Below are positions 22,277 through 41,317 of a stretch of 64,000 bases of DNA, one piece after another. The DNA is taken from assembly GCA_016871855.1 (NCBI GenBank), contig VHBQ01000006.1, positions 6,103-70,102 on the forward strand, written 5' to 3'. Positions within the stretch are counted from its first letter, which is position 1, and each line of letters starts with the position of its first letter. This DNA comes from Gemmatimonadota bacterium (GTDB lineage: Bacteria; Gemmatimonadota; Gemmatimonadetes; Gemmatimonadales; Gemmatimonadaceae). The notes beneath the pieces were generated by a model that worked only from the letters and a program-made list of their open reading frames with translations, had not been told where the DNA came from and did not search any database. The position numbers and the translations under genes are program-made.

Positions 22277-23017
22277 GTGACCAGCGCCGCCCCCCTCCAG
22301 ACACGGCAGCTCGCACTCGATGCGCGGGGGGTCGCGCGTCGATTCGGAGCGCGGTGGATCCTGCGGGGCGTCAACCTCCAGGTGCAGGCCGGCGAGATGG
22401 TCGGCCTCCTTGGGCACAACGGCTGCGGCAAGAGCACGTTCATGCGCATCGTGGCCACGCTGCTCAAGCCCTCCGCCGGCGATTGCTTCGTGTACGGCGC
22501 AAACGTGAAGACCGAGGGCGACGACGTGCGCCACCACGTCGGTTTCTTCTCCCATATCCCCGGCCTCTACGACGACCTCACGGCGCGCGAGAACCTGGCC
22601 TTCGCCGCCACGATGCTCGGCTTCCCGGCCGCGGACATCGACGCCGCGCTCGAGCGCGTCGGGCTCACGCACGTGACGCACGAGCGCGTGCGCGGCTTCT
22701 CGGCCGGCATGCAGCGCCGCCTCTCGCTCGCCCGCCTCATCCTCCAGCGCCCGCGCCTCCTCCTGCTCGACGAGCCGTACAATAACCTCGACGTCGCCGG
22801 GATCGCGCTGATGAACTCGTTCATCCGCGAGCTCAACGCCGCCGGCGGCGCCGCCGTGGTCGTGTTGCACGACTTGGTGCCGGCGCAGGGCGTGCTCGAC
22901 CGCACGGTGATCATCCGCGACGGGCGCGTGCACGAGCCGCGCCCCGGCGACTTCGGCCACGACGGCGCCTCGCCGCAGGCCATCACGCTGCCGGCCGGCG
23001 CGGCGGGGATCTCCTGA
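22277..23017 (+). CDS. ccmA: heme exporter ATP-binding protein CcmA
   Basis: GTG start. Walker A is GHNGCGKST, the ABC signature is FSAGMQRRLSLA and Walker B is LLLLDEP. It is first in a ccm-ordered operon. Confidence 0.88.
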   Translation: MTSAAPLQTRQLALDARGVARRFGARWILRGVNLQVQAGEMVGLLGHNGCGKSTFMRIVATLLKPSAGDCFVYGANVKTEGDDVRHHVGFFSHIPGLYDDLTARENLAFAATMLGFPAADIDAALERVGLTHVTHERVRGFSAGMQRRLSLARLILQRPRLLLLDEPYNNLDVAGIALMNSFIRELNAAGGAAVVVLHDLVPAQGVLDRTVIIRDGRVHEPRPGDFGHDGASPQAITLPAGAAGIS

Positions 23018-23042
23018 TGACGCGCCACCCGAGGACCCGCTG

Positions 23043-23729
23043 ATGGCCTTCCGCGACGACATGCGCCGCATCCGCGCGATCGTGTGGAAGGACCTCACCA
23101 CCGAGCGGCGCTCGAAGGCGGGGTTCAATTCGGTCGTCTCGCTCGGCGTGACCATTCTCGTGCTCTTCGGCCTCGCCCTCGGCCCCGACGCGCAGGCGCT
23201 GCGCGACGCAGCCGCCGGCGCGCTCTGGCTGGCCGTGCTCTTCGCCGGCGTGCTCGCGTTCAATCGGTCGTACCAGGTGGAGCTCGACGGCGGGGCGCTC
23301 GAGGCGCTGCTGCTCTATCCGGGCGCGCGCTGGGCGATCTTCGCCGGCAAGCTGATCGCCAACCTGATCTTTGTGTCGCTGATGCTGGTGATCGTCGTCG
23401 CCGTCGGGCTGGTGCTCTTCGGCGTGCGCGTGCCGGCGCAGTGGCCGTCCCTGCTCGGCCTGATGATGCTCGGCGTCGTCGGCATCGTCGCGCTCGGTAC
23501 GTTCTACGCGGCGATGTCCAGCCGCAGTCGCGCGCGCGAGGTGCTGCTCCCGCTGCTGCTCTACCCGATGCTCATCCCCGTGCTTCTCGCCGCGATGATG
23601 GCGACCAAGCTGTTCCTGAGCGGCGACCTGATGAATGAACTGGGCACCTGGGTGAGCCTGCTCGGCGCGTTCGATGTGATCTTCCTTGTGGCGACCTTCC
23701 TGGCCTTTGAATACGTGATCGAGGTCTGA
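23043..23729 (+). CDS. ccmB: heme exporter membrane protein CcmB
   Basis: 228-aa six-helix membrane protein in the ccmB position. N-terminus IVWKDLTTERRSK is typical of CcmB. Confidence 0.85.
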   Translation: MAFRDDMRRIRAIVWKDLTTERRSKAGFNSVVSLGVTILVLFGLALGPDAQALRDAAAGALWLAVLFAGVLAFNRSYQVELDGGALEALLLYPGARWAIFAGKLIANLIFVSLMLVIVVAVGLVLFGVRVPAQWPSLLGLMMLGVVGIVALGTFYAAMSSRSRAREVLLPLLLYPMLIPVLLAAMMATKLFLSGDLMNELGTWVSLLGAFDVIFLVATFLAFEYVIEV

Positions 23730-23734
23730 CCGTC

Positions 23735-24448
23735 ATGTCCCGCAACGACACCACGCAGTTTGGTCCGCCCCGGCCGGCTCCCGCCTGGCTCGGGTGGGGC
23801 GCGCTGCTCTTCTTCCTCTTCACGCAGGTCTACGCCGTCGTCACGTCGCCCGCCGACGCGATGATGGGACACCTGCAGAAGATCCTCTACGTGCACGTGC
23901 CATCGGCGTGGGTGACCTTCGCCGCCTTCGGCGTCGTGCTCGTCGCGTCCATCCACTTTCTCTGGAAGGAGGACGAGCGCGCCGACCTGCTGGCGGCGGC
24001 GTCGGCGGAGGTGGGGGCGATGTTCTGCGGCCTCACCCTGATCCAGGGGATGCTCTGGGGGCGCCCGACCTGGGGAGTCTGGTGGTCGTGGGACGCGCGG
24101 CTCACGAGCACGCTGGTGCTCTTCCTGATCTTTGTGGGGTATCTCGCCCTGCGGTCGTTCGTGGAGGATCCGCACCGGCGCGGCCAGTGGAGCGCGGCCG
24201 TCGGCATCCTCGGCGCGATCAACGTGCCGATCGTCTGGATGTCGGTGCGGTGGTGGCGCACGCTGCACCAGATCCAGAGCGACCCGCGCGAGGTGGCCCC
24301 GGTGTTCCTGCGCGGATGGCTGCTGAACGTCGCTGCGTTCTCGCTGATCGCGGTGTGGTTCATCTGGAAGCGATACGAGGCCGCGCGGTACGAGCGCGCG
24401 GCCGAGCACGCGGCGCAAGCGGCCGCGCTGGGAGGCAACAATGGGTAG
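23735..24448 (+). CDS. ccmC: heme exporter protein CcmC
   Basis: 237 aa. The tryptophan-rich WGRPTWGVWWSWDARL motif is diagnostic of CcmC/CcmF heme-handling proteins. Confidence 0.9.
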   Translation: MSRNDTTQFGPPRPAPAWLGWGALLFFLFTQVYAVVTSPADAMMGHLQKILYVHVPSAWVTFAAFGVVLVASIHFLWKEDERADLLAAASAEVGAMFCGLTLIQGMLWGRPTWGVWWSWDARLTSTLVLFLIFVGYLALRSFVEDPHRRGQWSAAVGILGAINVPIVWMSVRWWRTLHQIQSDPREVAPVFLRGWLLNVAAFSLIAVWFIWKRYEAARYERAAEHAAQAAALGGNNG

Positions 24449-24599
24449 CCCCATCGAACACGGCGGGATCGAGTTCGTGGTGGCGGCGTACGTCATCACG
24501 TGGGTGGTGCTGGGAGCCATGCTGACGCGCCTGATTGGCGCCGTTCGCCGCGCCCGGACAGAATACCAGCAGGCGTCAAAGGGAGAGTTCAGGACATGA
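24441..24599 (+). CDS. ccmD: CcmD-like small membrane protein (52 aa; below the ORF-track length cutoff)
   Basis: Hand translation: MGSPIEHGGIEFVVAAYVITWVVLGAMLTRLIGAVRRARTEYQQASKGEFRT. It has one TM helix then a basic tail. The start overlaps the ccmC stop by 8 nt and the stop overlaps the ccmE start (ATGA). Confidence 0.7.
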   Translation: MGSPIEHGGIEFVVAAYVITWVVLGAMLTRLIGAVRRARTEYQQASKGEFRT

Positions 24600-25048
24600 C
24601 CATGAAACGGAGCAAGTGGGGCGCGCTGGCGGCGGTGGGCGTGCTCGTGATGGCCTTCGGCTGGCTGATCTACGGCGGCCTCGACAGCAACGTCGTCTAC
24701 TTCCTGACGCCCAAGGAGCTCGCGGCGAAGGGCGTGGAGGGGATGGACAAGCCCGTGCGCCTCGGCGGCCAGGTGAAGCCTGGCTCCGTCGTCTGGGACG
24801 AGAAGGCGCTCGACCTGCGCTTCACCGTCACCGACGGGACGAGCGAAATCGCCGTGCACTCGAAGGGCGCGCCGCCGCAGATGTTCAAGGACGGACAGGG
24901 CGTGGTCATCGAGGGGCGCTACGGCAAGGACAGCGTCTTCAAGAGCACCAGCCTGATGGTCAAGCACTCCAACGAGTACAAGGCGCCGGAAAAGGGTGAA
25001 CGCCCCTCGGAGATGTACAAGTCCCTTATGAAGAGCTCCGGGTCATGA
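24596..25048 (+). CDS. ccmE: cytochrome c-type biogenesis heme chaperone CcmE
   Basis: N-terminal anchor followed by NVVYFLTPKEL...VRLGGQV and the C-terminal heme-binding His context MVKHSNEYKAPE. ATG 24596 chosen over the track start 24500. Confidence 0.88.
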   Translation: MTMKRSKWGALAAVGVLVMAFGWLIYGGLDSNVVYFLTPKELAAKGVEGMDKPVRLGGQVKPGSVVWDEKALDLRFTVTDGTSEIAVHSKGAPPQMFKDGQGVVIEGRYGKDSVFKSTSLMVKHSNEYKAPEKGERPSEMYKSLMKSSGS

Positions 25049-27048
25049 CCCGCCTGCTTGCCTACAACGCCATCATCGTCGCGACCGCGATCTCACTGCT
25101 CGGCGCCGTGTTGCTCCCCGTGGCCATCCGCCGCGGGCGGCGCGACTGGCTGACGCTGGGCTACGCGGCGGTCTACACCAACTTCGTGCTCGTGACCGTC
25201 GCCACGCTGGCCCTCGTCTGGGGGCTCGTGACGCACGACTTCAGCATCTCCTACGTCGCGCAGGTCGGAAGCCGCGCCACGCCGCTGTTCTTCACGGTCA
25301 TCTCGTTGTGGGGCGCCCTGGAGGGCTCCATCGTCTTTTGGGCCTGGGTGCTCGCGCTGTACGGTGCGGCGGCGGTCTACTTCAACCGCGGGCGTGAGGG
25401 GCACCTCGTCCCGTACGCGGCGGTCACGCTGCTGCTGGTGTCGCTCTTCTTCCATGTCCTGCTGCTGGGTCCGGCCAATCCGTTCCAGCCGGTCTTCCCG
25501 GTGCCCTTCGACGGCCCCGGGCCCAACCCACTGCTGCAGAACCACATCCTGATGGCGGTGCACCCGCCGTTGCTGTACCTGGGCTACGTGGGCTTCACCG
25601 TGCCGTTTGCCTTCGCCGTGGGCGCGATGCTCTCCGGTGAGGTGGCGAGCGACGACTGGATCCGCCTCGGACGTCGCTGGACCGTGGCGTCGTGGGGCTT
25701 CCTGACGGCCGCGATCGTGGCGGGCATGTGGTGGTCGTACGAGGTGCTTGGCTGGGGCGGCTACTGGGCGTGGGATCCCGTGGAGAACGCCTCGTTCATT
25801 CCATGGCTCACGGCCACCGCGTACCTGCATTCCGTGATGGTGCAGGAGCGGCGCGGGATGCTGAAGCTGTGGAACCTGAACCTGATGGTCGGCACGTTCG
25901 TGCTCACCATTCTCGGCACGTTCCTCACGCGCTCGGGGATCATCTCGTCGGTGCACGCGTTCACGACGGGGACGATCGGCTACTACTTCCTCGCTTTCAT
26001 CGGCATCGTGCTCGTTGCCGCGCTGTTCATGGTCGCCGGCAACAGCGACCGGCTCGCCTCGGAGGGGCGCCTCGACGCGCCGCTGTCGCGCGAGACGGCG
26101 TTCCTCGTGCAGAACCTGCTCTTCACCGCGTTCATGTTCACGGTGCTGATCGGCACGCTCTTCCCGCTGGTGGCCGAGGCGGCGCGCGGCGTGAAGGTGA
26201 GCGTTGGGGAGCCGTTCTTCAACAAGATGTCGCTGCCGCTCATGGTGGCGTTGCTCTTCCTGATGGGAGTCGGCCCGGCGCTGCCGTGGCGCAAGGCGGC
26301 GGGTGAGGAGCTGAAGGGACGGCTGTTGCCCGGCATCGTGCTCGGCGTACTGTTCGCCATCGGCGTCGTGGCGGCCGGCGGCCGCGGCGCGTACTCGGTG
26401 CTCGCCTTCCTGTTTGCGGGCTTCGCGCTCGGCACCAACCTGCAGGAGTTCGTGCGCGGCGCCAACGCCCGCGTGAAGGCGCATGGCGAGTCGTTCGTGA
26501 TGGCGCTGGTCCGGCTGGTCGCGGCGAACCGTCGCCGATACGGCGGCTACACCGCCCACATCGGCGTCATAATGGTCGCGGTCGGCATCGCCGCGTCGAG
26601 CACCTTCAAGACGGAGCAGGAGGCGACGCTCACGCCGGGTCAGACGATGACCGTGGCCGGCCACACCCTGCGCTTCAAGAACGCGTGGGGACGGCAGGAG
26701 AAGCAGCGCGAGGTGATCGGCGCCACGATGGAGTGGATGGATGGCGACCGCGTGCGGGCACAGATCGAACCGCGCATGAACTACTATCCCACGCAGCAGG
26801 AGCCGGTGCCGACCCCGGACGTGCGCAGCACGCTGCGCGGCGACATCTATCTGAGCCTGATGGCGTTCAAGGCGGATGGATCCAACGTGACGGTCAAGGT
26901 GATCTGGGAGCCGCTGGTGCCATGGATCTGGATCGGCGGCATGGTGGTGTGCTTGGGGGCAATCGTCGGCGCCTGGCCGGGTGGGCGTGAGCGGGGGCGC
27001 GCGGTAGCGACGCCGGCGGCCCCGGCGCTTGCGGAGGGCCAGCCGTGA
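25045..27048 (+). CDS. ccmF: cytochrome c heme lyase subunit CcmF
   Basis: 667-aa polytopic protein with the W-rich motif WGGYWAWDPVENASFIPWL. Confidence 0.92.
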   Translation: MTRLLAYNAIIVATAISLLGAVLLPVAIRRGRRDWLTLGYAAVYTNFVLVTVATLALVWGLVTHDFSISYVAQVGSRATPLFFTVISLWGALEGSIVFWAWVLALYGAAAVYFNRGREGHLVPYAAVTLLLVSLFFHVLLLGPANPFQPVFPVPFDGPGPNPLLQNHILMAVHPPLLYLGYVGFTVPFAFAVGAMLSGEVASDDWIRLGRRWTVASWGFLTAAIVAGMWWSYEVLGWGGYWAWDPVENASFIPWLTATAYLHSVMVQERRGMLKLWNLNLMVGTFVLTILGTFLTRSGIISSVHAFTTGTIGYYFLAFIGIVLVAALFMVAGNSDRLASEGRLDAPLSRETAFLVQNLLFTAFMFTVLIGTLFPLVAEAARGVKVSVGEPFFNKMSLPLMVALLFLMGVGPALPWRKAAGEELKGRLLPGIVLGVLFAIGVVAAGGRGAYSVLAFLFAGFALGTNLQEFVRGANARVKAHGESFVMALVRLVAANRRRYGGYTAHIGVIMVAVGIAASSTFKTEQEATLTPGQTMTVAGHTLRFKNAWGRQEKQREVIGATMEWMDGDRVRAQIEPRMNYYPTQQEPVPTPDVRSTLRGDIYLSLMAFKADGSNVTVKVIWEPLVPWIWIGGMVVCLGAIVGAWPGGRERGRAVATPAAPALAEGQP

Positions 27049-27671
27049 ACTGGAAGCGCGCGACGATCGCCGCGGCCAGCGCGGCGCCGGTCATTGGGTT
27101 GTTCGCTTGGGGACTGACCCGCGACCCGAACAACATTCCGTCCCCGCTCCCCGGCCGTGCGGCGCCGCAGTTCGCGCTGCAGGTCTTCGCGCCGGGACAG
27201 GCGGCGCTCTCGCGCCCGGTCGGCGACACCGTCCGCCTCGCCGACCTGCGCGGCAAGGTGGTGGTGCTGAACTTCTGGGCCTCGTGGTGCCTCGCGTGCC
27301 GCGACGAGCATGCCGCGCTATCCGACGTCGCCGCGACCTACGCGGGCCAGCCGGTGCAGTTCCTCGGCGTGCTCTACAACGACGTCCCCGACAAGGGGAG
27401 CGCCTGGATCGCCGAAATGGGCGGACAGACCTATCCGTCGGTCGATGACCCCGGCGCGCGCACGGCGATCGACTACGGGCTCTACGGCGTGCCGGAAACG
27501 TTCTTTCTCGACGCGACCGGCCGCGTGGCGTACAAGCACACCGGGCCGGTGACGCCCGCGGTGGTGCGATTCAAGGTGGACTCGCTGATGGCGGCGGCGG
27601 CCGCGCCCGCGGCACCGGCGGGTGCGCCGAGTGGTGACACGGCGGCAGCCTCGAAGGGAGGGGCACGATGA
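27045..27671 (+). CDS. ccmG: thiol:disulfide oxidoreductase CcmG/DsbE (TlpA-like thioredoxin fold)
   Basis: The active site is VVLNFWASWCLACRDE, and YGVPETFFLD is the DsbE motif. GTG start overlaps the ccmF stop. Confidence 0.88.
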   Translation: MNWKRATIAAASAAPVIGLFAWGLTRDPNNIPSPLPGRAAPQFALQVFAPGQAALSRPVGDTVRLADLRGKVVVLNFWASWCLACRDEHAALSDVAATYAGQPVQFLGVLYNDVPDKGSAWIAEMGGQTYPSVDDPGARTAIDYGLYGVPETFFLDATGRVAYKHTGPVTPAVVRFKVDSLMAAAAAPAAPAGAPSGDTAAASKGGAR

Positions 27672-28225
27672 TTTGGCACCGGAGACTCTCGCGTGGCCTG
27701 ACGGCGCTCGCCGCCGCGGCTGCGCTTGGCGCGCTGTCGCTTGGCGCAATCTCGCCCCGCGGGCTCGGCGCGCAGGCGCCCGAGCTGCCCGCCGCGCCGC
27801 AGGGGGCGCCGCAGGACACTGGGGCGTTGCGCGTGCAGGTGCAGGGGACGCTGACCGACGCGCAGAAGAACGATCCCGCGCTCGACCGGCTGACGTCCTC
27901 AGTGGCCGCGCAGCTGCGCTGCCCCGTCTGCCAGGGCGTCTCGATCCAAGATTCGCCCTCGGAGCTCGCGCAGCAGATGCGCACGGTGGTGAAGGAACAG
28001 CTTGCCTCGGGCAAGTCGCCCGACGAGGTAAAGGACTACTTCATCTCGAAGTACGGCGAGTGGATCCTGCTCGAGCCCAAGGCGTCGGGCTTCAACCTGC
28101 TCGTCTATGCGCTCCCGTGGGTGCTCGTCGCGGGCGGACTCGTCTTCCTCGCGTTCGTCGTAAAGAAGTGGACGTCGGCGCAGCCGGCGACGGCGGGGGG
28201 CGCCGCTAGGGCGGATGACGACTGA
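27668..28225 (+). CDS. ccmH: cytochrome c-type biogenesis protein CcmH (NrfF-like)
   Basis: LRCPVCQGVSIQDSPSELA is the CcmH CxxC motif, followed by a C-terminal TM helix. The start overlaps the ccmG stop (ATGA). Confidence 0.88.
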   Translation: MIWHRRLSRGLTALAAAAALGALSLGAISPRGLGAQAPELPAAPQGAPQDTGALRVQVQGTLTDAQKNDPALDRLTSSVAAQLRCPVCQGVSIQDSPSELAQQMRTVVKEQLASGKSPDEVKDYFISKYGEWILLEPKASGFNLLVYALPWVLVAGGLVFLAFVVKKWTSAQPATAGGAARADDD

Positions 28226-28282: not shown

Positions 28283-29734
28283 CTAGCCGCGGTCGGCAGG
28301 CGCGCTGGCGGGAAACGCAAGCGTCGCTGCAGTCCCCGTGCCGGGCGCGCTGTCGATGGTGGCCTCGCCGCCGTGGAGTCGCATGATGGACTGCACGATG
28401 GCCAGGCCAAGGCCCGCGCCCTCGGTCCGCGCATCGTCACCGCGAAAGAAGCGTTCGAAGACGCGCGGCAGGTGCTCCGCCGCAATGCCGACGCCCGTGT
28501 CACGCACGATGATGTGGGCGCCTCCGTCGGGTTGCGGGCGCGCCTCCATGTGCACGTGATCGCCGGCTGTCGTGTGCTTGAGCGCATTCGCCAGGAGATT
28601 GCTCACGGCGCGTCGCACGAGCACCGGATCGCCGGTCACCGTCGCCTCGCCCTCGCACCGCACCGAGACGCCACGCTCCGCGGAAAGCGCCTCGTAGAAC
28701 TCGCGGACCGCGTCCATTTCCCGACGCACTCCAAACGTGGTGCGTTCAATCGCCAGATGCGGATCCTCGGCGCGCGCAATGAACAGCAGGCCGTCGATCA
28801 GACGTGAGAGGCGGTCCAGCTCCTCAAGGTTCGAGCCCAGCGTCTGCTGGTACTCCTCCGTCGTCCGCGTTCGGGACAGCGCGACCTCTGCGTTGCCGCG
28901 AAGGTTGTTGATGGGATTGCGCAGCGCGTGCGCCAGGTCCGCGGCGAACTGCGAGAGGCGCGCGAACGCATCTCCAAGGCGCGCGAGCATCTGGTCAAAA
29001 TCGTGGGCGAGGCCCCGCAGCTCCGCGGGCCAGGGGCGTGCCGACAGCGGCGGCAGGTCGAGACGGCTGGCGTTGATGAGGCGCGCCCGGTCGGTGATCT
29101 CGTGTATTGGCCGGACCGCGAGGCGCGCGAGCAGCAGCGTGCCGAGTGCCGACACCAGCACGCCGATGCTCAGGACCCAGGCGAGCAGGCGGGCGTAGCG
29201 CCGCAACATCGCACGGGTGCGTTCGACGTCGAACGCCACCTGGATGACCACGCGCTCGGACTCTCCAAGAGCGCTCGCCCGATGGGCGCCGAGCAGGAAC
29301 CGCCGGTCACTGCTCCAATCGCACTCGGCGCAGCCCAGCGAGGCGGCTTCGGACGGCAAGGGTGTGGGGAAGGCCCCCACCGGGAGCGCCGCCGGCATGC
29401 CGGGCGTCTCGTGCGCCACGCGTCCGGAGGGTTCAACGATTCGCAGGAAGTAGCTGAGCGGTCCCCCTTCACCGGCCTCATGCTCGATCTCGCTCTCGAT
29501 CGCCTCGGCCGTCAGAGGGTACGTGGCCACGAGGTGCTCAAGGACTGCTAGCTTGCTGGCGACGAGCTTCGCGTCCTGCTGTCGGAGCTCACGGGCGAGC
29601 CCCCAGTAGAGAACGCCGCCAACGATCGCCAGAATGACCAGGGTCTTGACGGCATTGGCGGCGGAGAGCCGTCCCGTGATCGACCACCGGCGGACCGGTG
29701 GGGGCGTCCCAGGTTCAGTTTTCGTCGAGAACAT
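28283..29734 (-). CDS. heavy-metal-type sensor histidine kinase (CusS-like; two TM helices + HAMP + HisKA + HATPase)
   Basis: 483 aa. The N-terminus [24 protein letters not shown]...[20 protein letters not shown] follows the CusS-family pattern. H-box is [16 protein letters not shown] and the G2 box is [12 protein letters not shown]. Confidence 0.8.
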
Positions 29735-30386
29735 ACCCGACCCCGCGGACGGTGCGAACCAGCTTGTGGTCGTACGGATCGTCCACCTTGGCCCGCAGGC
29801 GCCGGATGGCGACGTCCACCACGTTGGTGTCGCTGTCGAAGTGCATCTCCCAGACCAGCTCGGAGATGAGCGTCCTCGAGAGCACCTCGCCGCGGCGGCG
29901 CACGAGCAGCGTCAAGAGCGCGAACTCCTTGGGCGTCAGGTCGAGCCGTTGCCCGGCGCGCGCGGCCCGATGACGCGGAAGGTCGAGCTCGAGGTCCCCA
30001 ACCGTCAAGACGTCGGGCTGACGCGCCGGACCGCGGCGCAGGATGGAACGGACGCGCGCCAGCAGCTCGGAGAACGCGAAGGGCTTCACCAGGTAGTCGT
30101 CGGCGCCGGCCTCCAGCCCCTTCACCCGATCGCTCACCGCGTCGCGGGCCGTCAGGAACAGCACGGGCGTCTCGCGGCCGGCGCGCCGGAGCGACGCGAG
30201 CACAGACCAACCGTCGCGCCGTGGAAGGCCCACGTCGAGCACGACGAGATCGTACGCCCCTTCCATCGCCAGGTGCAGCCCGTCGTCACCGTTGTTGGCG
30301 AGGTCCACCACGAAGCCGGCCTCCGTCAGTCCCTGATGCAGGTACTCGGCGGCTTTGTGTTCGTCTTCGACAATGAGGATGCGCAT
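29715..30386 (-). CDS. heavy-metal-type OmpR-family response regulator (CusR/CopR-like)
   Basis: [55 protein letters not shown]...[26 protein letters not shown] closely parallels E. coli CusR as I recall it. Internal ATG 30386 preferred to the track start 30449. The gene overlaps the kinase gene by 20 nt. Confidence 0.85.
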
Positions 30387-30575
30387 AAGAGCGTCCATGG
30401 CGTGACGGGCCGGCGCACTTCTCGGCGAACCAAGCCGCGAAGCACGCACGGCCGGCGAGGCGCAGGAGTCGCCCGCCGACCGTGCGATGCCGTCCCAATC
30501 TAGCGGCCGTCCAGGGATCCGGAGAAGCGGTGGAGGAACCTCAGCTCCTTCACCCTGAACGGACCGCCGATGGGT

Positions 30576-33041
30576 CTACTTTGCCCCGCCGAACCCGTAC
30601 GTCAGGCCGACGTAGACGGCGGTGCCGTTGTAGCTGGGCGCGAGGTACGAGCCCATGTTGATCAGGCGGTTGCCCCACTGGTGCGAGCGCGACGTGTCGC
30701 GCAGCAGCAGCTCAGAACCGACCGGCTCGAACTGCGCGGTGCCGCCACTCTGCTGCCAGTCGTCGAGCGTGAACTTCTCGAGGCGAACGCCGAGACGCCC
30801 CTTCACGTGGCCGAACAGGCGCGTCTGCAGCGAAACGTCCGCCGCCTGCGTGCGATGCTCGACGGGCGCCGGCGAGGTGAAACTGAACTCGTGGTTCGAC
30901 GCGAACGGCGTGCCGTCGAAGTTCACCGCGCCGAAGCCCGCGTACCCGATCTCCATGGTCGCCATCGTGCTCGTGAACGAGGCCGCCAACGTCGTCTTGT
31001 CGGGGACGAGGTCGAAGCTCCCCCCGATCATGACGTACGTCGTGCGATCGTCGAAGTCCGCCATCCACTGGCTCGACGCGCGCGTCCACGGTCCGAGCGA
31101 CGCCGTGTTCACGGCGCTCGGGTTCAGCCGGTTGTTCTCGTTGAACTCGATGCTCTTCATGTCCGACGTGCCGGCATCAGCGCCGAGGGTGGCATTGAGC
31201 GCCACCCGGTCGTTGGGCATATAGCTCACGTCCAGGGAGAGCTGCTGCTGCGCCCGCTTGAGGAGCCCGAGCTGGTTGCCCGGGGTTCGGGCCGCCTGGT
31301 CCGCGACGGCGAGCCCAAGGAGCGGCTGCACGGACGTCACGTCCGAGTCGAAGTCGTCGGAGAGCGACTTGAACCGCGCCGACACCGAGAGCTTGTCGTT
31401 CGGGTTCACCGTCACGCTGATGTCTGACTGGGTGCGCGCGCGGTCCGCCATGGTGAACATCCGCATGTCCGGGTGGTTCTCGAACGCGAACTGCGGGTTG
31501 TTGTTGTCGGTCGCCTCGGCGGGCGTGTACCAGTAGCTGTGGGTCGGCGCCTTGTAGTCATACTCGCCGGCGTCACGGTTGGAAGCGAGCACGCGTGCCC
31601 GTAGCGAGAGCCAGCGGGTGGGGCGCCCGTTCCAGCCCAGGCGCAGCGTGTTCTCCTCCGTCGCCGCCGCCTCGAGGTGCTCGCGCCCGAAGTCCTCGCG
31701 CTCGACGCCGAGGACGAGGCTGCCCTTGAGTGCGGGCACCCGCACCGTGGTCTCGACGCCGAAGTTCTGGCGGTCCCAGGCAAAGGGCTCGTTGAGGCGC
31801 TTGTTGACGTAGGCGACCGTGCCGGTGGTGTTCGCCGCATCCTGAATGGCGTACTGCCACTTCGCCTTCGGCGTCTGGTTGTCCAGTTCGTAGTGCCGGG
31901 CGAACGCGCGCACGTTGACCAGGGGCAGCGGCGCGATGAAGTACTCCGCGGCGAGCGCGGTGGTCTCGATCTTTCCCTGCGTGCTGGCGCGGGGGAGCGT
32001 CTTGTTCACGAGCACGTCGTTCGCGTAAGCGTACGGGAGCAGCGCACCGTCCTGCTCCATCGTCCCGCGCGCGACGCTGCCGGTGAGCCGGCTGGCGAAG
32101 GGGAGAGCGACACCGCCAGAGAGCGTAACGCTCTGGTACGTGTTGTCCGGCGCGAGCGGCCGCCGGCCGTACACTGATACCGCACGGTCCCACGTGTCGT
32201 ACGTGGCGCCGGCGGGCGCGGAGGCCCACACGTTCCGCCACGTCAGCACGTCAATCTCGTTCTCGAACTGCGATCGCAGGAACTCGGCCCGCACCTGGTA
32301 GCGCGGCTTCACGATTTCAGCCGAGGCGGTGACGTCGTTCGAGGCGAAGTCCACCGGTTCGGCGAACTGCACGTTGAGCGTCCGCGGCGGGCGGTCGCCC
32401 ATCGGGCCGTACCCGATGCGGCTCCCTTCCTTGGCGCGCCGCGTGAACCCGACCGCGAAGTTCATGGACTTCACGCCGCTGTACGACAGCGCGAACGCCC
32501 CGTTCTTCGACGTGGTGCCCAGGTCAACGGCACGCGCGTTGGCGGCGACCCAGGCGGCGGCGATGGCGTCCATCGCCACGACACTGGCCGCGTCGGAACT
32601 CCCGGTGGCGAGCTTCTTGAAGGTGATGGCCATCGTGGACGGTGCGTCGAGCTTTCCGGGCGACGTCTCTCTGAGCACGGACTTGGCCTTGTGGCTCAGG
32701 TCGTGCGGCAGCTCGTCCCAGGTGGCCGACAGGCGCCAGACGCCCGGCCGGCCCGCGGCGAGGCCGAGGCTCTGGTCACGACGCGTCACGTCGGCGCCGG
32801 CCAGGTTGAAGTAGGTCCCCCCGGCGTTCTTCTGGAAGGTGAAGGCCAGCGGCGTCTTGCCGTTGCGCAGATCGCGGTATTCGGTGAAGACGCTCGAATT
32901 CGAGCTGTTGTCGGTGCCCTGCACGCCGATCGTGATGGTGCCCCGTCCCGCGGCGTCGGCGGCGGGCGCCTTCTCAGCGACTTGGGCCGTGGCCAGCAGC
33001 GGCATGGCGGCCAGCGTCAGGCAAGCAATGTAGTTGCGCAT
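30576..33041 (-). CDS. MtrB/PioB/MtoB-family outer-membrane beta-barrel porin (decaheme-associated)
   Basis: 821 aa with signal peptide LTLAAMPLLATAQV. The alternating beta-strand-style sequence is rich in Y/G/T/N. An N-terminal VFTEYRDLRNG motif resembles the family's 'GEYxGL' region. GGAG lies 8-12 nt before the ATG, which is 13 nt after the stop of a decaheme cytochrome gene. Confidence 0.7.
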   Translation of the reverse strand: MRNYIACLTLAAMPLLATAQVAEKAPAADAAGRGTITIGVQGTDNSSNSSVFTEYRDLRNGKTPLAFTFQKNAGGTYFNLAGADVTRRDQSLGLAAGRPGVWRLSATWDELPHDLSHKAKSVLRETSPGKLDAPSTMAITFKKLATGSSDAASVVAMDAIAAAWVAANARAVDLGTTSKNGAFALSYSGVKSMNFAVGFTRRAKEGSRIGYGPMGDRPPRTLNVQFAEPVDFASNDVTASAEIVKPRYQVRAEFLRSQFENEIDVLTWRNVWASAPAGATYDTWDRAVSVYGRRPLAPDNTYQSVTLSGGVALPFASRLTGSVARGTMEQDGALLPYAYANDVLVNKTLPRASTQGKIETTALAAEYFIAPLPLVNVRAFARHYELDNQTPKAKWQYAIQDAANTTGTVAYVNKRLNEPFAWDRQNFGVETTVRVPALKGSLVLGVEREDFGREHLEAAATEENTLRLGWNGRPTRWLSLRARVLASNRDAGEYDYKAPTHSYWYTPAEATDNNNPQFAFENHPDMRMFTMADRARTQSDISVTVNPNDKLSVSARFKSLSDDFDSDVTSVQPLLGLAVADQAARTPGNQLGLLKRAQQQLSLDVSYMPNDRVALNATLGADAGTSDMKSIEFNENNRLNPSAVNTASLGPWTRASSQWMADFDDRTTYVMIGGSFDLVPDKTTLAASFTSTMATMEIGYAGFGAVNFDGTPFASNHEFSFTSPAPVEHRTQAADVSLQTRLFGHVKGRLGVRLEKFTLDDWQQSGGTAQFEPVGSELLLRDTSRSHQWGNRLINMGSYLAPSYNGTAVYVGLTYGFGGAK

Positions 33042-33054
33042 GATCGTGGTCTCC

Positions 33055-33969
33055 TCACCGCGTGAACTTGGGACCCGACGGGTGCTGCGACCCGTGGATC
33101 GTCATGTGGCAGTTGACGCACCCTTCCCCGTACGGATTGCTGGTCCGGTTGTAGCGCGGGAGGTTGATGTGTCCGCCGTACGAGTGGCACTGCAGGCACA
33201 GGAAGGCGTCCTTCTTGTTCAGCAGCTTGCGATTCGTGGACCCGTGCGCGCTGTGGCAGTTGGCGCAGCTCTCACGCACCGGCGCGTGCTCCCAAAGGAA
33301 CGGGCCGCGCTTCTCGGTGTGACAGGAGTTGCACGTTTCGTTGAGGGTCGCGTGCTTCAGCAGGGCGGGGTTCGAGCCGTGCACGTTGTGACACGACACG
33401 CAGTCCATGCGCCCCTCGCGCACCGGATGGTGCGAGGTCTTCGCCATCTGCGCCTTGGTCGATGCGTGGCAGCGATAGCAGCTCTCTGTGGCGCGGGCAC
33501 GGGCGAGCACCGCGCCGCCGCCGCGCGGCGCCTTGGCGGCGTGGCACGAGGTGCAGCTGAGTTCGCCGGCCGCGTGGGCCCCCGTCATGTACGTCAGGCG
33601 GCTGCCGCCGGCGTGGCACTGCATGCAGATGCCCGACTGCTGGGCCTTGGTGAGCGACTTCCACTCCGCCACCGGCTTGCTGTCGTCCACGTGCTTGCTG
33701 CGCGGGCCGTGGCACGATTCGCAGGTCCCGGCGACGGCGGTCTTCCCGGCCTTGAAGTACTCGGCGTGGGCGCTGCCGTCGAACTTGTGGGCGACGGCAT
33801 CGTGACAGGTCGCGCAGGACTTGTCGTCGTTGACGAACTTCGCGCCGGCAAAGGCGGGGTTGATCTTCTCCCACGCCACCTGCTGCGCGCGTCCCGATGC
33901 GCTGACGCCTGTCAGCAGGATCGAGAGGGTGGCCAGCACCGGCCCCCATCTGTACCAAGCAGTTCGCAT
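33055..33969 (-). CDS. periplasmic decaheme c-type cytochrome, MtrA/DmsE/PioA/MtoA family
   Basis: Exactly ten CxxCH motifs in ~300 aa: CATCH, CESCH, CMQCH, CTSCH, CYRCH, CVSCH, CNSCH, CANCH, CLQCH, CVNCH. Signal peptide is MRTAWYRWGPVLATLSILLTGVSASG. ATG 33969 has GGAG ~9 nt upstream, so the track start 34107 is rejected. Confidence 0.85.
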   Translation of the reverse strand: MRTAWYRWGPVLATLSILLTGVSASGRAQQVAWEKINPAFAGAKFVNDDKSCATCHDAVAHKFDGSAHAEYFKAGKTAVAGTCESCHGPRSKHVDDSKPVAEWKSLTKAQQSGICMQCHAGGSRLTYMTGAHAAGELSCTSCHAAKAPRGGGAVLARARATESCYRCHASTKAQMAKTSHHPVREGRMDCVSCHNVHGSNPALLKHATLNETCNSCHTEKRGPFLWEHAPVRESCANCHSAHGSTNRKLLNKKDAFLCLQCHSYGGHINLPRYNRTSNPYGEGCVNCHMTIHGSQHPSGPKFTR

Positions 33970-34181
33970 GCTCTGGACTCCCCTTGAAAAATGTCCTGCC
34001 ACTCGGCGCGGCCCGACGCCGCGGTGCGGCGCCGTCTGCCTGCCAGGTGGCCTTCGCCGTCCGTCTCGACGCGGTGGGCGTCGTGACGGACGAACAGGAA
34101 GCAGCACGCCGGGGGGCCAAAACGGCTTCTTCCTTACTTTATATGGTGCATCGCGTGCCGGTACCGCAGGATGACGGTGAG

Positions 34182-34197
34182 ATTACACTTCTGTAAT
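34182..34197. promoter_or_regulatory. ATTACA-N4-TGTAAT dyad in the divergent mtrA-like / glycosidase intergenic region (candidate response-regulator box)
   Basis: Read directly inside a local AT-rich patch. A TATAAA hexamer (minus strand, 34143-34138) lies ~40 bp downstream in the direction of the cytochrome gene. Confidence 0.3.
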
Positions 34198-36675: not shown

Positions 36676-38280
36676 TTGTCCGCACCGCGACCGCGCCGTA
36701 GCTTCGCGTTTTGGACCACCGCAGACGACCCCGTGACCGTTCCGACCACTTCCCCGACCACCCCGCCGCGCGCACTCGACGCGTTGGCGGCGGTCATCGC
36801 CGAGTTCAACGCCGACCGTCCGCTCGAGGCGAGCATCGCCACGGCGCTCGAGGCGCTGCGTCGCTCGCTGGACGCGCAGGAGTGCTCGCTCTGGCTGCAC
36901 ACCGCGGACGGCTTCGTGCGCACTTGGGTCGCCGGGGATGCCACCGCCGCCGAACTGGCCGTGGTGGCGGCGCTGGGGAGCGGCGAGGAGACGGACGGCG
37001 TGCGCGCGGTCCCGGTCAGCAGCCCGGATCGCCGCATCGGGGCGCTCGCGTTGCGGCTGGCGCGGCCGATGCTTGGCGACGATGCCACGCTCCTGACCGC
37101 GGTCGCCAACCTGCTCGCGCCTGAGATCATCCATGCCGAGCGCTCGCGACAGCTGGAAGTCGAGGTGGCAGCGCGAACGGCCGAAATCGACCGGGAGCGG
37201 CGGTTCACCGAGAAGATCATCGACTCGATGCCCGTCGGGCTCTACGTGATCGACCGCGAGTACCGCATCCAGGCGTGGAATCGCAAACGCGAGACCGGCA
37301 TGCAGGGCGTGTCGCGCGACGAGGCGATTGGGCGAACGATCTTTGACATTCTGCATCGCCAGCCGTTCGAGATGCTGCGCCGCGAGTTCGACGAAGTGTT
37401 CGCGACTGGGCGCATCCAGGAATACCAGATGGAGTCGGCGGCGAGCGGCGACCCGCGCACGTATCGCATCACCAAGATCCCGATGCGGCTGGGCGACTCC
37501 GCGGTAACGCACGTCATCACCATCGGCGAAGACGTCACCGACTGGCGCGAGGGGCATCAGCGCCTGTCGCAAGCCGAGAAACTGGCTGCCATCGGCACGC
37601 TTGCCGCCGGCGTAATGCACGAGATCAACAACCCGCTGGCCACCATCGCCGCCTGCGGCGACGGGCTGGGCTATCGGCTCGAGGACCTGCAGCGTCGCGG
37701 CGCCGAGGTGGGGAAGGACCTCTTCGATTACCTCGAGATCATCGACAACGAGGTCCTGCGTTGCAAGCAGATCGTGGACCAGCTCCTCGACTTCAGCCGG
37801 CCGAAGCAGCTTGCCAAGTCGCCGGTAGACCTCAACGAGGTGGCCGAGAAGACGCTGTTCCTGATGAAGCACCACGGCGGCTTCAAGAAGCTGACGCTGG
37901 TCAAGGAGCTCGAGCCAGACCTGCCGCCGGTTCCGCGCGGCAACGCCGAGCAGCTGGTGCAAGTGCTGATGGCGCTGATCATCAACGCCACGGACGCGAT
38001 GGGCGGGCACGGGACGATCACGCTGCGCACGCGCTCGGGGCCGACCCCGGCCGACGGGGCGATCGTCGAGGTGACCGACACGGGGCACGGCATCGCGCGG
38101 GCGGAGCTCTCGAAGATCTTCGAGCCATTCTATACCACCAAGGCGCCGGGGACGGGGACAGGGCTGGGGCTCGCCATCTGCTACGGCATCGTGCAGGACC
38201 ACCGCGGGCGCGTCGAGGTGGACAGCGTGGTCGGGAAGGGGAGCACCTTCCGCGTCCTGCTGCCGACGATCGAATGGTGA
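36676..38280 (+). CDS. cytoplasmic GAF-PAS sensor histidine kinase
   Basis: 534 aa with no TM segments and a GAF-like N-terminus. The PAS region is IIDSMPVGLYVIDREYRIQAWN and the H-box is GVMHEINNPLATI. The G boxes are DTGHGI and GTGLGLAICYGIV. The track start is TTG and the true start is uncertain. Confidence 0.82.
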   Translation: MSAPRPRRSFAFWTTADDPVTVPTTSPTTPPRALDALAAVIAEFNADRPLEASIATALEALRRSLDAQECSLWLHTADGFVRTWVAGDATAAELAVVAALGSGEETDGVRAVPVSSPDRRIGALALRLARPMLGDDATLLTAVANLLAPEIIHAERSRQLEVEVAARTAEIDRERRFTEKIIDSMPVGLYVIDREYRIQAWNRKRETGMQGVSRDEAIGRTIFDILHRQPFEMLRREFDEVFATGRIQEYQMESAASGDPRTYRITKIPMRLGDSAVTHVITIGEDVTDWREGHQRLSQAEKLAAIGTLAAGVMHEINNPLATIAACGDGLGYRLEDLQRRGAEVGKDLFDYLEIIDNEVLRCKQIVDQLLDFSRPKQLAKSPVDLNEVAEKTLFLMKHHGGFKKLTLVKELEPDLPPVPRGNAEQLVQVLMALIINATDAMGGHGTITLRTRSGPTPADGAIVEVTDTGHGIARAELSKIFEPFYTTKAPGTGTGLGLAICYGIVQDHRGRVEVDSVVGKGSTFRVLLPTIEW

Positions 38281-38287
38281 GGCCGAC

Positions 38288-38956
38288 ATGAAGGTGCTCG
38301 TCATCGAGGACGACAAGACCGTCGGCCAGTTCGTCAAGCGCGGGCTGGAGCAGCAGCGCTGGAACGTGGACCTCGTCGCCGACGGCATCGAAGGCGAACG
38401 CCTGGCGCGCTCGCAGCCGTACGACGTGGTGGTGCTCGACATGCGCCTACCCGGCAAGCAGGGGCTCGATGTGCTGCGCGACCTGCGGGCGACCGGCTTC
38501 GAGCGCCCCGTGCTCGTGCTGACCGCGCAGGATGCGGTGGACGCCAAGGTCACGACGCTGCGCGCCGGGGCGGACGACTACGTGACGAAGCCGTTCGCCT
38601 TCGAGGAGCTGCTCGCCCGCGTGGAGGCGCTGGCCCGGCGGCCGCGGGCGATCGCCGCGCCGGTCCTGACGGTGGGCGACCTGACGCTCGATCTCGACAC
38701 GCGCGAGGTGCGGCGCGGCCGTCGCGTGATCGAGCTCACGCCCAAGGAATTCCTGGTGCTCGAGTACCTGATGCGGCACGCGGGCCGCGTGATGAGCCGC
38801 ACGCTCATCACCGAGTATGCGTGGGGCTATCACTTCGATCCCGGGACGAACATCGTGGACGTCGTCATCAACCACCTGCGCAAGAAGGTGGACGCGGCCG
38901 CAGAGAAGAAGCTGATCACCACGGTGCGCGGCGTCGGCTACGTGGTGAAGGGCTAG
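38288..38956 (+). CDS. OmpR-family response regulator
   Basis: MKVLVIEDDKTVGQFV...VVVLDMRLPG receiver domain plus a winged-helix C-terminus (LTPKEFLVLEYLMRHAGRVMSR...VRGVGYVV). Confidence 0.9.
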   Translation: MKVLVIEDDKTVGQFVKRGLEQQRWNVDLVADGIEGERLARSQPYDVVVLDMRLPGKQGLDVLRDLRATGFERPVLVLTAQDAVDAKVTTLRAGADDYVTKPFAFEELLARVEALARRPRAIAAPVLTVGDLTLDLDTREVRRGRRVIELTPKEFLVLEYLMRHAGRVMSRTLITEYAWGYHFDPGTNIVDVVINHLRKKVDAAAEKKLITTVRGVGYVVKG

Positions 38957-38965
38957 CGGGGCGCC

Positions 38966-40459
38966 GTGGCCTCGATCCGGTCGCGGGTCACGGCGGCATA
39001 CGCGCTGGCCTTGGGCGGCACGATGCTCGCCTTCGCCCTCGCCCTGTGGACGGCGCGTCGCGCCTCCGTGCTCCGGGACTTGCAGGTGCGGGTTGCGACG
39101 CTGGCCGACATCGGGCACCTGGTGCTGACCCAGGCCGGGATGCAGAACACGCCGGTCGTGGTGACCACCGACTCCATGCGCGGCCCGGAGCTGCAGCCGC
39201 TGCTGCGTGCGCGGCTCGACGCCGTGCCCGGCTACCTGATCGTCACGGATTCCCTGCGCGCGCTGTACCTGTCGGCGGACGTGCGCGCGCTCGCGCCGGA
39301 CGACGCGGCCGAACTGCTGCGCGCGGTGATGCTGTTCACGCCGGAGAAGCGCGCCGCGACCGTGACGCTCGCCGCCGACGAACTGCTGATGGTCGCCCGC
39401 TTCGAGGACGGCGAGGCCGGCCCCGTGCGCCGCGTGGTGGCGGCCAGTTCGGTGGGGGCGGCGGAGTTCATTGGCAGCGAGCAGTTTAAGGTGCTCGTGC
39501 TGATCGCACCGCTCATCGTGCTGCTGTCGGTGATCATGGCCTACGTGATCACCGGACGAGCCCTGCGCCCCGTGGACGAGATCATCAGCGAAGTGTCGGC
39601 CCTCACCGACGGCCGCTCGCTGCACCGGCGGCTGCCGCCGTCGGAGGGGGACGACGAGCTGGCCCGCCTGTCGGACACGCTGAACGCGATGATCGCGCGG
39701 CTCGAGCAGTCCTTCTCGGGCCTGCGGCGGTTCACGGCGGACGCCAGCCACGAGCTCAAGACGCCGCTCACCGTGCTGCGCGCCGACATCGAGCGCGCGA
39801 TGACGGCGGGGCCGCGCTCGACTGAGGGGCTGATCGCGCTGGAGGAGGCGCTGCAGGAGACGGCGCGCATGGCCGACCTGGTGGACTCCCTGCTCACGCT
39901 GGCCCGCGCCGACGAAGGGCGCTTCGACCTGCACCGCGAGCCGGTGGCCCTCGTGCCGCTGGTGCGCGACGTGGCGGAGACCGCGCAGATCCTGGGCGAA
40001 GACGCCGGGCTCACGGTCCGGGTCGAGCCGCTCGAGGCGGCGACGGTGATGGGCGACGCGCTGCGCCTCCGCCAGCTGTGCCTGAATCTCGTCACCAACG
40101 CCGTGAAGTACACCGCGCGCGGCGGTCGCGTGGAACTCTCGCTCACGCGGCGGGGGGACACCGCCGAGTTCGCAGTGCGCGACACGGGGATCGGGATCGC
40201 CGGCGCCGACCTGCCCTACGTGTTCGACCGCTTCTGGCGGGCGGACCGCGCCCGCTCGCGGTCGGCTGGGCAGGGGGGCGTGGGGCTCGGGTTGGCCATC
40301 TCGCAGTACATCGCGCACGCGCATGGCGGGTCCATCACCGTGGCCTCGCGACTCGGGCGGGGCTCCACGTTCACGGTCTCGTTGCCGCTGGCCGTCGGGG
40401 CCACGGCCGGCGGCGAGGCCCCCCCAGAGCAGCCGCGGGCGGCCGCAAGCGAAGACTAA
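38966..40459 (+). CDS. membrane HAMP sensor histidine kinase
   Basis: 497 aa with two TM segments and a HAMP domain. H-box is FTADASHELKTPLTVL, and the G boxes are DTGIGI and GVGLGLAISQYIA. Confidence 0.88.
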   Translation: MASIRSRVTAAYALALGGTMLAFALALWTARRASVLRDLQVRVATLADIGHLVLTQAGMQNTPVVVTTDSMRGPELQPLLRARLDAVPGYLIVTDSLRALYLSADVRALAPDDAAELLRAVMLFTPEKRAATVTLAADELLMVARFEDGEAGPVRRVVAASSVGAAEFIGSEQFKVLVLIAPLIVLLSVIMAYVITGRALRPVDEIISEVSALTDGRSLHRRLPPSEGDDELARLSDTLNAMIARLEQSFSGLRRFTADASHELKTPLTVLRADIERAMTAGPRSTEGLIALEEALQETARMADLVDSLLTLARADEGRFDLHREPVALVPLVRDVAETAQILGEDAGLTVRVEPLEAATVMGDALRLRQLCLNLVTNAVKYTARGGRVELSLTRRGDTAEFAVRDTGIGIAGADLPYVFDRFWRADRARSRSAGQGGVGLGLAISQYIAHAHGGSITVASRLGRGSTFTVSLPLAVGATAGGEAPPEQPRAAASED

Positions 40460-41276: not shown

Positions 41277-41317
41277 CCAGACCACCACCGAACCACTGAA
41301 CGCAGGAGCGTTATTCC

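Follow-up and report, generated by a model that had tools for sequence, protein, structure and literature searches.

The closest described relatives of the system treated here are the porin-cytochrome conduits MtrCAB of Shewanella, MtoAB, and PioABC of Rhodopseudomonas palustris TIE-1, the last of which serves phototrophic Fe(II) oxidation and electron uptake. In the Shewanella complex, MtrB forms a sheath of 26 strands, and its surface loops cover all of the decaheme MtrA but heme A10, and MtrAB without MtrC, with that heme at the surface, reduces soluble chelates of Fe(III) and not oxides (PMC7198977). The characterized two-gene conduits PioAB and MtoAB take electrons up (PMC6831781, PMC11429942). 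Here, we analyzed a stretch of 64,000 nucleotides (nt) (64 kb; called the window below) of contig VHBQ01000006.1 from a Gemmatimonadota bacterium. The window carries, on one strand, genes for a decaheme c-type cytochrome, an outer-membrane beta-barrel, a response regulator, and a sensor kinase, preceded by a palindromic box (Table 1). We read these, with a probability of roughly 0.6, as a self-regulating MtrAB-type conduit of four genes that would be switched by its own sensor, act on soluble substrates, and lean toward inward electron flow.

Conduits of this kind are on record for the lineages concerned. MtrCAB has been reported from a Gemmatimonas metagenome-assembled genome (MAG) and from Acidobacteriia (PMC8805035), MtrABC from marine Gemmatimonadota MAGs (PMC11316326), and PioA/PioB homologs from Acidobacteria (PMC10654088). 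For lake bacterioplankton with MtoA plus MtrB, a link has been drawn to redox-active dissolved organic matter that serves as donor as well as acceptor (bioRxiv 10.1101/2022.03.26.485925), and in Desulfobacterota mtrAB are clustered while mtrC often lies in another operon (PMC12133095). Moreover, NCBI holds the exact two proteins encoded here, each from a Gemmatimonadetes MAG, as 'DmsE family decaheme c-type cytochrome' and 'MtrB/PioB family outer membrane beta-barrel protein.' The conduit is thus a known, already-annotated kind of system whose presence in Gemmatimonadota is unsurprising, and an initial reading made from the letters of the window (the sequence-only reading) overstated the case in calling the trait unexpected for this phylum. 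What is new here, as judged by comparison of sequences, is a divergent long subfamily together with a conserved, lineage-specific sensory control; the adjacent regulator and kinase and the upstream box were absent from that reading.

Compared by protein family, the pair resembles MtoAB in combining a decaheme of about 300 amino acids (aa) with a large MtrB/PioB-family barrel encoded next to it, with no MtrC. It differs in that the mto cluster has mtoD and cymA/imoA partners (PMC4412085, PMC10654088), none of which is linked here. The hosts differ as well, a heterotroph-type member of the Gemmatimonadota here versus a lithoautotroph, and the locus described here has a dedicated CusRS-type pair and box. 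With PioABC it shares a porin-cytochrome conduit that lacks a surface cytochrome, and PioB, at about 810 aa, is similar in length to the 821-aa barrel. However, the window has no high-potential iron-sulfur protein (HiPIP) of the PioC type, the long non-heme N-terminal extension of PioA (PMC10654088) is absent from the 304-aa decaheme, and pio is under FixK-type regulators (PMC13345007) and not under a linked two-component system.

Table 1. Positions of the conduit genes, their putative control elements, and neighboring features in the window
Feature	Position	Strand	Basis
Palindromic CopR/CusR/AgrR/HprR-type box, about 213 nt 5′ of the decaheme ATG; gene-strand sequence ATTACAgaagTGTAAT	34182..34197	.	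Consensus match
Putative −10 element CACCAT, with CAnnnT conserved; on the decaheme side of the box, 33 nt downstream	34143..34148	-	Invariant C, A, and T columns
Periplasmic decaheme c-type cytochrome, MtrA/DmsE/MtoA/PioA family, 304 aa, putative signal peptide	33055..33969	-	Ten CxxCH, TIGR03508
13-nt spacer GGAGACCACGATC with GGAG (ribosome-binding site of the barrel gene)	33042..33054	-	Read from sequence
26-strand outer-membrane beta-barrel sheath, MtrB/PioB family, 'long' subfamily, 821 aa	30576..33041	-	PF11854, AlphaFold2, Foldseek
OmpR-type response regulator, heavy-metal (CusR/CopR/CzcR/HprR) subfamily, 223 aa, start MRILIV	29715..30386	-	TIGR01387; public gene call of 223 aa
Membrane sensor histidine kinase, heavy-metal (CusS/CopS/CzcS) subfamily, 483 aa	28283..29734	-	TIGR01386
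Complete ccmABCEFGH cytochrome c maturation operon	22277..28225	+	Pfam CcmB, CcmC-type, CcmE, CcmF, redoxin, CcmH
tRNA between the Alternative Complex III and ccm operons	21995-22067	+	Rfam
23S rRNA intervening-sequence protein gene between the same two operons	21461-21835	-	
Complete Alternative Complex III operon: ActA pentaheme, ActB molybdopterin/FeS, ActC NrfD-type, ActD, ActE monoheme, ActF-like	13528-21403	+	

The decaheme cytochrome, its barrel, and their relatives

The first protein of the pair has exactly ten CxxCH motifs and no CxxxCH variant, while 5,000 composition-preserving shuffles of its sequence gave a mean of 0.1 CxxCH and a maximum of 2. Its N-terminus, MRTAWYRWGPVLATLSILLTGVSASG, has on inspection the n/h/c shape of a signal peptide. 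The family model TIGR03508 matched at 234.5 bits against a cutoff of 192.2, with model positions 3 to 258 of 258 covered, and the solved Shewanella baltica MtrA (6r2q_A) was matched with an E value of 2e-49 and 38% identity, all ten heme sites being aligned. Across 41 decaheme homologs, the ten CxxCH motifs and ten further histidines are invariant, which fits the need of bis-His ligation. An AlphaFold2 (AF2) model, built from 41 sequences and without hemes, had a predicted local distance difference test (pLDDT) score of 46.9, too low for use; from its sequence homology to MtrA, the protein is predicted to have the same heme-wire fold. The 13-nt spacer that follows, with its GGAG, implies translational and operon coupling of the decaheme and barrel genes, and the gene calls publicly available for the identical contig agree on both genes, at 304 aa and 821 aa.

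For the barrel, PF11854 (MtrB_PioB) aligned residues 47 to 816 with model positions 4 to 634 of 635 at 266 bits (cutoff, 23). The narrower TIGR03509 scored 184.9 bits (E = 2.6e-54), under its cutoff of 240.05; the barrel therefore belongs to a divergent subfamily, and NCBI gives it a generic Pfam-based name accordingly. A pairwise search of the PDB returned no match at E values up to 1, and a profile built from 43 barrels of the clade matched MtrB (6r2q_B) with an E value of 3.4e-28. The AF2 model of the barrel is of good quality (pLDDT of 82.7; predicted template modeling [TM] score of 0.77) and shows 26 long strands. When the model was compared with known structures by Foldseek, MtrB (6r2q_B) ranked first (E = 1.8e-58; target-normalized TM score, 0.88); all other matches had TM scores of 0.5 or below, the next being 22-strand TonB-dependent receptors at about 0.4. 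These data indicated that the sequence-only reading was right in proposing an MtrAB/PioAB/MtoAB-type pair made of a protein of about 300 aa with ten CxxCH motifs and, 13 nt downstream behind a GGAG, an 821-aa open reading frame (ORF); it had left the strand unstated, and both genes lie on the minus strand. Of the two family models it suggested, TIGR03508 was passed and TIGR03509 was not. The strand count it asked for came to 26, and the barrel did not fold as an unrelated porin.

Alignment with S. baltica MtrB revealed both shared and distinctive parts. The LAEPVDY stretch is common to the two proteins, and the barrel is about 125 aa longer. Four motifs are invariant in the clade (GDRPPRTLN, YWY...HPD, EFNENN, and QWGNRL) and fall in surface loops under standard topology. 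In MtrB, the loops bearing GDRPPRTLN, YWY...HPDMR, and EFNENN are absent or shorter, the GDRPPR loop being an insertion in the barrel described here and its YWY...HPDMR loop being much longer. The barrel has one cysteine, residue 7, which lies inside the signal peptide, and it therefore has no N-terminal CxxC; to our knowledge, PioB and MtoB likewise lack this motif. In Shewanella oneidensis MtrB, by contrast, the first cysteine (C42) of the N-terminal CxxC is required for Fe(III) reduction (PMC12175506, citing Wee et al. 2014).

Two other kinds of system were considered and set aside. DmsEF-DmsAB, which serves extracellular dimethyl sulfoxide and iodate reduction in Shewanella, resembles the pair in its AB-type core, and 'DmsE family' (TIGR03508) is the name given to the decaheme by NCBI, but no DmsAB is linked here, and the sole nearby molybdopterin-family protein is ActB of Alternative Complex III (ACIII). 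For the GSU2203/GSU2204 family of Geobacter, NF041028 and NF041027 gave 231.6 bits against 325 and 81 bits against 350, and the barrel has no CxxCH.

Relatives of the barrel were sought among 1.84 billion cluster representatives (50%-identity clusters). Of the 1,299 found, about a dozen (820 to 865 aa) align end to end, and the remainder, of about 700 to 790 aa and at most 200 bits, align with residues 10 to 570 or so, leaving the C-terminal third unaligned. A scan of GTDB species genomes then yielded 75 loci of the long type, numbered with the prefix L where they are cited singly, in Gemmatimonadota, Acidobacteriota (mostly Vicinamibacterales), Desulfobacterota, Ignavibacteriota, Bacteroidota, Schekmanbacteria, and Bacteriovoracaceae. 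By these alignments, the barrel is a member of a distinct long subfamily (about 815 to 850 aa) that spans at least six phyla. A decaheme gene lies directly 5′ of the barrel gene in 66 of the 66 loci with upstream sequence, and the gap is 0 to 26 nt in essentially all of them.

Clustering of the ORFs of the 75 loci left four broadly recurring families once shadow ORFs were removed: barrel, decaheme, response regulator, and histidine kinase. Many other neighbor families that had seemed conserved were rejected, being shadow ORFs that overlap these four real genes. Neighborhoods were counted in the 41 loci whose flanks reach 2.8 kb or more on each side. An additional cytochrome with at least four hemes occurs within 10 kb in 6 of them, and the long-subfamily pair, as far as gene content tells, is nearly always a stand-alone two-gene module. 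The window conforms to this pattern. A CxxCH scan of all six frames across its 64 kb found ActA (5 hemes) and ActE (1 heme) of ACIII as the only other c-type cytochromes, hence no MtoD monoheme and no CymA/NapC-type tetraheme; the window has no surface decaheme of the MtrC/OmcA family, and its complete Pfam gene map contains no HiPIP, cupredoxin, or NapC/NirT protein. The earlier remark that no MtrC, CymA, or PioC-like gene is visible nearby thus holds for the full 64 kb.

A linked sensor pair and its putative operators

Directly 3′ of the barrel gene and on the same strand, a regulator gene and a kinase gene follow (30386..28283). The regulator scored 341.5 bits with TIGR01387 (cutoff, 279.2), and the kinase was matched end to end by TIGR01386 at 373.9 bits (cutoff, 292.55). 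In seven Gemmatimonadota orthologs, the periplasmic domain of the kinase (residues 80 to 140, approximately) has kept SE(V/I)EHE, ETPG, and CxEC, and these cysteine, histidine, and glutamate motifs (CxEC and SE(V/I)EHE) might make up a metal site or act as a redox switch. No relative of this sensor domain was found among the solved structures of the PDB. The CxEC pair and the SE(V/I)EHE cluster are absent from the kinase ortholog of Bacteriovoracaceae (L051).

A kinase and a regulator adjoin the module in 32 of the 41 loci: 5 of 5 among close Gemmatimonadota, 19 of 21 in Acidobacteriota, 7 of 8 in Desulfobacterota, and 0 of 4 in Ignavibacteriota/Bacteroidota. The pairs are of different types. 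Those of Acidobacteriota lie upstream of the module, with heavy-metal families as their best match, below cutoff. Those of Desulfobacterota, a third type, consist of a kinase with multiple transmembrane segments and a receiver-winged helix-turn-helix regulator, and one Bacteroidota locus has an AraC-type regulator.

The box upstream of the decaheme gene is the sole match to ATKACANNNNTGTMAT in the 64 kb when one mismatch is allowed, and it is a perfect one, where 0.05 would be expected by chance. This sequence is the footprinted 6-4-6 palindromic consensus of AgrR/CopR-type regulators (PMC7380067). Written at greater length, the window box CATTACAGAAGTGTAATC agrees with the Escherichia coli CusR/HprR box CATTACAAAATTGTAATG (PMC9302797) at 14 of 18 positions. 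Gemmatimonadota loci have ATGACAnnnnTGTAAT in common 5′ of the decaheme gene, and the box core is invariant in seven aligned sequences of the phylum (the window, L001, L005 to L008, and L010). In related loci totaling 1.15 Mb, 13 sites match with one mismatch at most, and 8 of these are in intergenic regions of the module: 5′ of the decaheme gene in L005 to L008 and L010, in the kinase-decaheme spacer of L051, and, in L008 and L009, 5′ of the regulator gene. The boxes 5′ of the regulator gene in L008 and L009 suggest autoregulation. On these grounds we infer that the regulator binds the box.

If the conserved CAnnnT downstream of the box is a −10 element, the box would be centered near −53 and the leader would be about 165 nt long; a position near −53 falls within the footprint range reported for the AgrR/CopR-type class (PMC7380067). 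Terminator-like sites between 28.1 and 34.5 kb occur at chance level. An Rfam scan of the window returned tRNA only, with no match in the decaheme leader. Within that leader (33970-34142, minus strand), the stretch GCCCCCCG is one that several orthologous loci also have. The 190-nt gap between the barrel stop and the regulator start has in the window no box at the place where L008 and L009 have theirs; it contains a GC-rich hairpin, GGTGAAGGAGC...GTTCCTCCACC, with no T-run (30450-30575, minus strand).

Acidobacteriota loci have a different operator, TTCAGGAnCTCTTCAG, with a TAGACT-like element after it. Among 33 matches to TTCAG-N6-TTCAG, 22 are at one fixed site 5′ of the decaheme gene and about 6 more are 5′ of the regulator gene; the window has none. 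That two phyla have unrelated operator types at one and the same place argues strongly, on comparative grounds, for control of the conduit by the adjacent pairs.

The control genes resemble the CusRS/CopRS/AgrRS/HprRS systems in passing both TIGR01386 and TIGR01387 and in having an operator that fits ATKACANNNNTGTMAT exactly and would lie near −53. They differ in that the known regulons of those systems are efflux pumps, multicopper oxidases, or MsrPQ, and in that the sensor domain, with CxEC and SExEHE motifs of its own, is not detectably similar to solved sensors. We know of no CusRS, CopRS, AgrRS, or HprRS system that controls a porin-cytochrome conduit. A search of the accessible literature likewise turned up no paper in which MtrAB, PioAB, or MtoAB is coupled to a two-component system or a Cop-type box. 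The Pcc locus of Geobacter (OrfR/OrfS-OmbB-OmaB-OmcB) is alike in encoding a conduit together with its own local transcription factor (PMC4282303). In contrast to the locus described here, it consists of unrelated families (an 8-heme periplasmic and a 12-heme surface cytochrome), its regulator is a one-component protein, and a surface cytochrome is present.

Proposed mechanism, direction of flow, and competing explanations

We propose that the unit is ordered as box/promoter, decaheme, barrel, response regulator, and sensor kinase. The decaheme would be exported and loaded with ten bis-His hemes by the neighboring Ccm proteins. Since the pair is homologous to the solved MtrAB complex, the cytochrome would then be threaded through the 26-strand barrel, forming an insulated heme wire across the outer membrane with the last heme at the surface. 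No MtrC-like surface cytochrome is encoded with the pair, and soluble or colloidal substrates are therefore the most likely: the wire would exchange electrons directly with species such as complexed Fe(II)/Fe(III), Mn, or redox-active organic matter and not with bulk minerals. Transcription would not be constitutive: the CusRS/CopRS-type pair would bind the box near −53 and activate the operon upon a periplasmic metal cation or a redox/oxidant cue. Because of the family membership, the operator match, and the conservation across lineages, it is probably a periplasmic metal or redox signal that switches the conduit on.

Inward flow, in which Fe(II) or other reduced species would be oxidized at the surface and the electrons passed to periplasmic cytochromes and the aerobic chain, as in PioAB and MtoAB, is the direction we tentatively favor, at somewhat short of even odds. 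The lean was taken because PioAB and MtoAB take up electrons, because the barrel lacks the CxxC of the reducer type, and because a cation-type sensor suits a reduced metal that reaches the periplasm. The contig occurs in Lake Tanganyika water-column metagenomes, and the redox stratification of this lake, which has a large anoxic layer, was counted toward soluble substrates and inward flow. Outward flow is a serious but lesser possibility, and operation in both directions or another role is the least probable of the three.

Several points weigh against the proposal as a whole. Its least certain step is direction, which is not inferable from sequence, since MtoA and PioA form no function-specific clades; the association of two-gene versions with Fe(II) oxidation, put forward in the sequence-only reading, stands as a correlation but is not diagnostic of direction (PMC8805035). 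Among the hosts of the long subfamily are also strict anaerobes (Desulfobacterota), for which outward flow would be more natural. Function as a conduit is drawn from homology, and equivalog-level membership of the barrel is unsupported, given a score below the trusted cutoff of TIGR03509 and a pairwise PDB search that misses MtrB. No inner-membrane or periplasmic partner was found in the window, the nearby ACIII being syntenic within Gemmatimonadota only, and MtrC may be encoded elsewhere in the genome (compare PMC12133095). As for regulation, a scan for sigma-70 consensus promoters between 28.1 and 34.5 kb found none, and the intergenic region around the box is divergent, with a glycoside hydrolase gene on its other side that the box could serve instead. 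Finally, 'heavy-metal' is a family label that also covers the oxidant sensor HprS (PMC9302797), and the identity of the signal is not given by the family.

The strongest competitor, which we nonetheless consider rather unlikely, keeps the same conduit and regulation and reverses the flow: under O2 limitation, respiratory electrons would pass to soluble or colloidal acceptors, for instance chelated Fe(III), Mn(III), or humic/quinone-type dissolved organic matter. It draws on the ability of MtrAB lacking MtrC to reduce soluble chelates of Fe(III) (PMC7198977), on the frequency of the subfamily in anaerobic Desulfobacterota and in Ignavibacteriota, on the lake bacterioplankton whose MtoA and MtrB are tied to redox-active dissolved organic matter (bioRxiv 10.1101/2022.03.26.485925), and on the large anoxic layer of the source lake. 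However, the window has neither a CymA/NapC-type quinol dehydrogenase nor a periplasmic shuttle, the barrel N-terminus is without CxxC, and a sensor of the metal-cation type better suits a reduced substrate with access to the periplasm than an external oxidant.

The control genes invite a further explanation, one with little probability in our estimate, in which the pair would not be mainly bioenergetic but belong to a CopRS/CusRS/HprRS-like regulon for envelope defense against metals or oxidants, either by oxidizing Fe(II), Cu(I), or Mn(II) at the surface or by sending out electrons that quench external oxidants. In its favor are the scores of the regulator and kinase above the heavy-metal family cutoffs, an operator equal to the Cop/Cus/Hpr box (PMC7380067, PMC9302797), cysteine, histidine, and glutamate motifs conserved in the sensor domain, and the lack of a respiratory partner linked to the module; moreover, HprRS and CusRS of E. 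coli control a periplasmic redox-repair system (PMC9302797). Yet the window has no linked resistance gene, be it for an efflux pump, a multicopper oxidase, or anything else, and the explanation has no precedent. That other phyla attach unrelated regulators to the same module argues against a specifically copper or silver signal.

It is slightly less probable still that the pair is the AB core of a full MtrCAB-type system for mineral respiration, with a surface decaheme of the MtrC/OmcA family encoded elsewhere. In Desulfobacterota mtrC is often unlinked from mtrAB (PMC12133095), some Gemmatimonadota MAGs have MtrCAB/MtrABC clusters (PMC8805035, PMC11316326), and large multihemes lie near the pair in L021, L024, and L073. 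Against this, no such gene occurs in the 64 kb, nor within 10 kb in 35 of the 41 related loci, and the surface loops of the barrel are clade specific. In MtrA, it is segment 284 to 306 that docks MtrC (PMC7198977), and if PDB and paper numbering agree, as we assumed, this segment equates to the loop between hemes 9 and 10 of the decaheme, which is 7 residues shorter than in MtrA and invariant in the clade (YGGHINLPRYNR).

The idea of no conduit at all, with an ordinary periplasmic multiheme reductase subunit beside an unrelated large porin, is effectively refuted: NrfB, NrfH, and HmcA, the nitrite/sulfite-reductase-type multihemes that the sequence-only reading had named as a possible refutation, gave weak partial matches far under their cutoffs, while TIGR03508 was passed, MtrB is the sole good structural match of the barrel and is also found by the clade profile, and the pairing is kept in 66 of 66 loci.

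Among the heterotrophs of soils and lakes, Gemmatimonadota and Vicinamibacteria rank with the most abundant and least cultured, and if such organisms run outer-membrane wires, they would have roles in the redox cycling of Fe, Mn, and organic matter that current models do not assign. The role of MtrAB-only modules outside the classic iron oxidizers and reducers is a standing question, to which the sensor pairs and operators give an experimental handle; a cultured carrier of the Acidobacteriota version is Luteitalea sp. TBR-22. We advise caution in that MtoA/MtrB marker matches alone are not evidence for iron oxidation. A bolder idea, which we regard as speculative and improbable, is that the long-barrel pairs are an unrecognized, phylum-spanning class of stand-alone, sensor-gated wires whose primary role would be signal-induced envelope redox chemistry and not dissimilatory respiration. 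Such wires might oxidize and detoxify reduced metals at the surface or exchange electrons with dissolved organic matter, each lineage with its own sensor, which in Gemmatimonadota would be a metal sensor of the CopRS/CusRS type. If this were true, 'iron oxidizer' calls made from MtoA plus MtrB in abundant soil and lake heterotrophs would be misreadings.

Neighboring genes and variation among related loci

In the window, the ACIII operon lies two operons away from the conduit and could link periplasmic cytochromes to the quinone pool. Its role as a dedicated inner-membrane partner is speculative, since the synteny is confined to Gemmatimonadota. The adjacency of ccm and ACIII is likewise kept in Gemmatimonadota loci and absent in Acidobacteriota, and we treated the ccm operon as general heme-attachment machinery that would not be specific to the module. 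The gene for the 23S rRNA intervening-sequence protein occurs at the equivalent position in the Gemmatimonadota contigs L001 and L003. The remaining genes of the window encode transporters, hydrolases, and further signaling proteins. Among these, a second signaling block (36676-40459, plus strand) comprises a PAS histidine kinase, an OmpR-type regulator, and a HAMP histidine kinase, with heavy-metal families again as the best match, below cutoff; TonB-ExbB-ExbD-ExbD follow it (40575-42979, plus strand).

Some of the related loci have additional genes near the pair. L024, from a Gemmatimonadetes MAG, has ORFs with 9, 17, and 11 CxxCH motifs (6679-11353), L030 and L034 of Vicinamibacterales have second or third decahemes plus 4- and 5-heme ORFs, and large multihemes are also found near the pair in L021 and L073. 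Some lineages may thus have extended the module with further multihemes. In about 10 loci of Desulfobacterota/Bacteroidota, a TauE/SafE-family permease (PF01925) adjoins the pair (for example, 12722-13495 in L046 and 7213-8010 in L065), and in L065 its neighbors include an AraC regulator and a Fer4_5 membrane protein. L072, titled 'uncultured Bifidobacteriaceae bacterium,' carries a typical Vicinamibacterales-type module of regulator, kinase, TTCAG operator, decaheme, and barrel, and it is probably a mis-binned or mislabeled contig.

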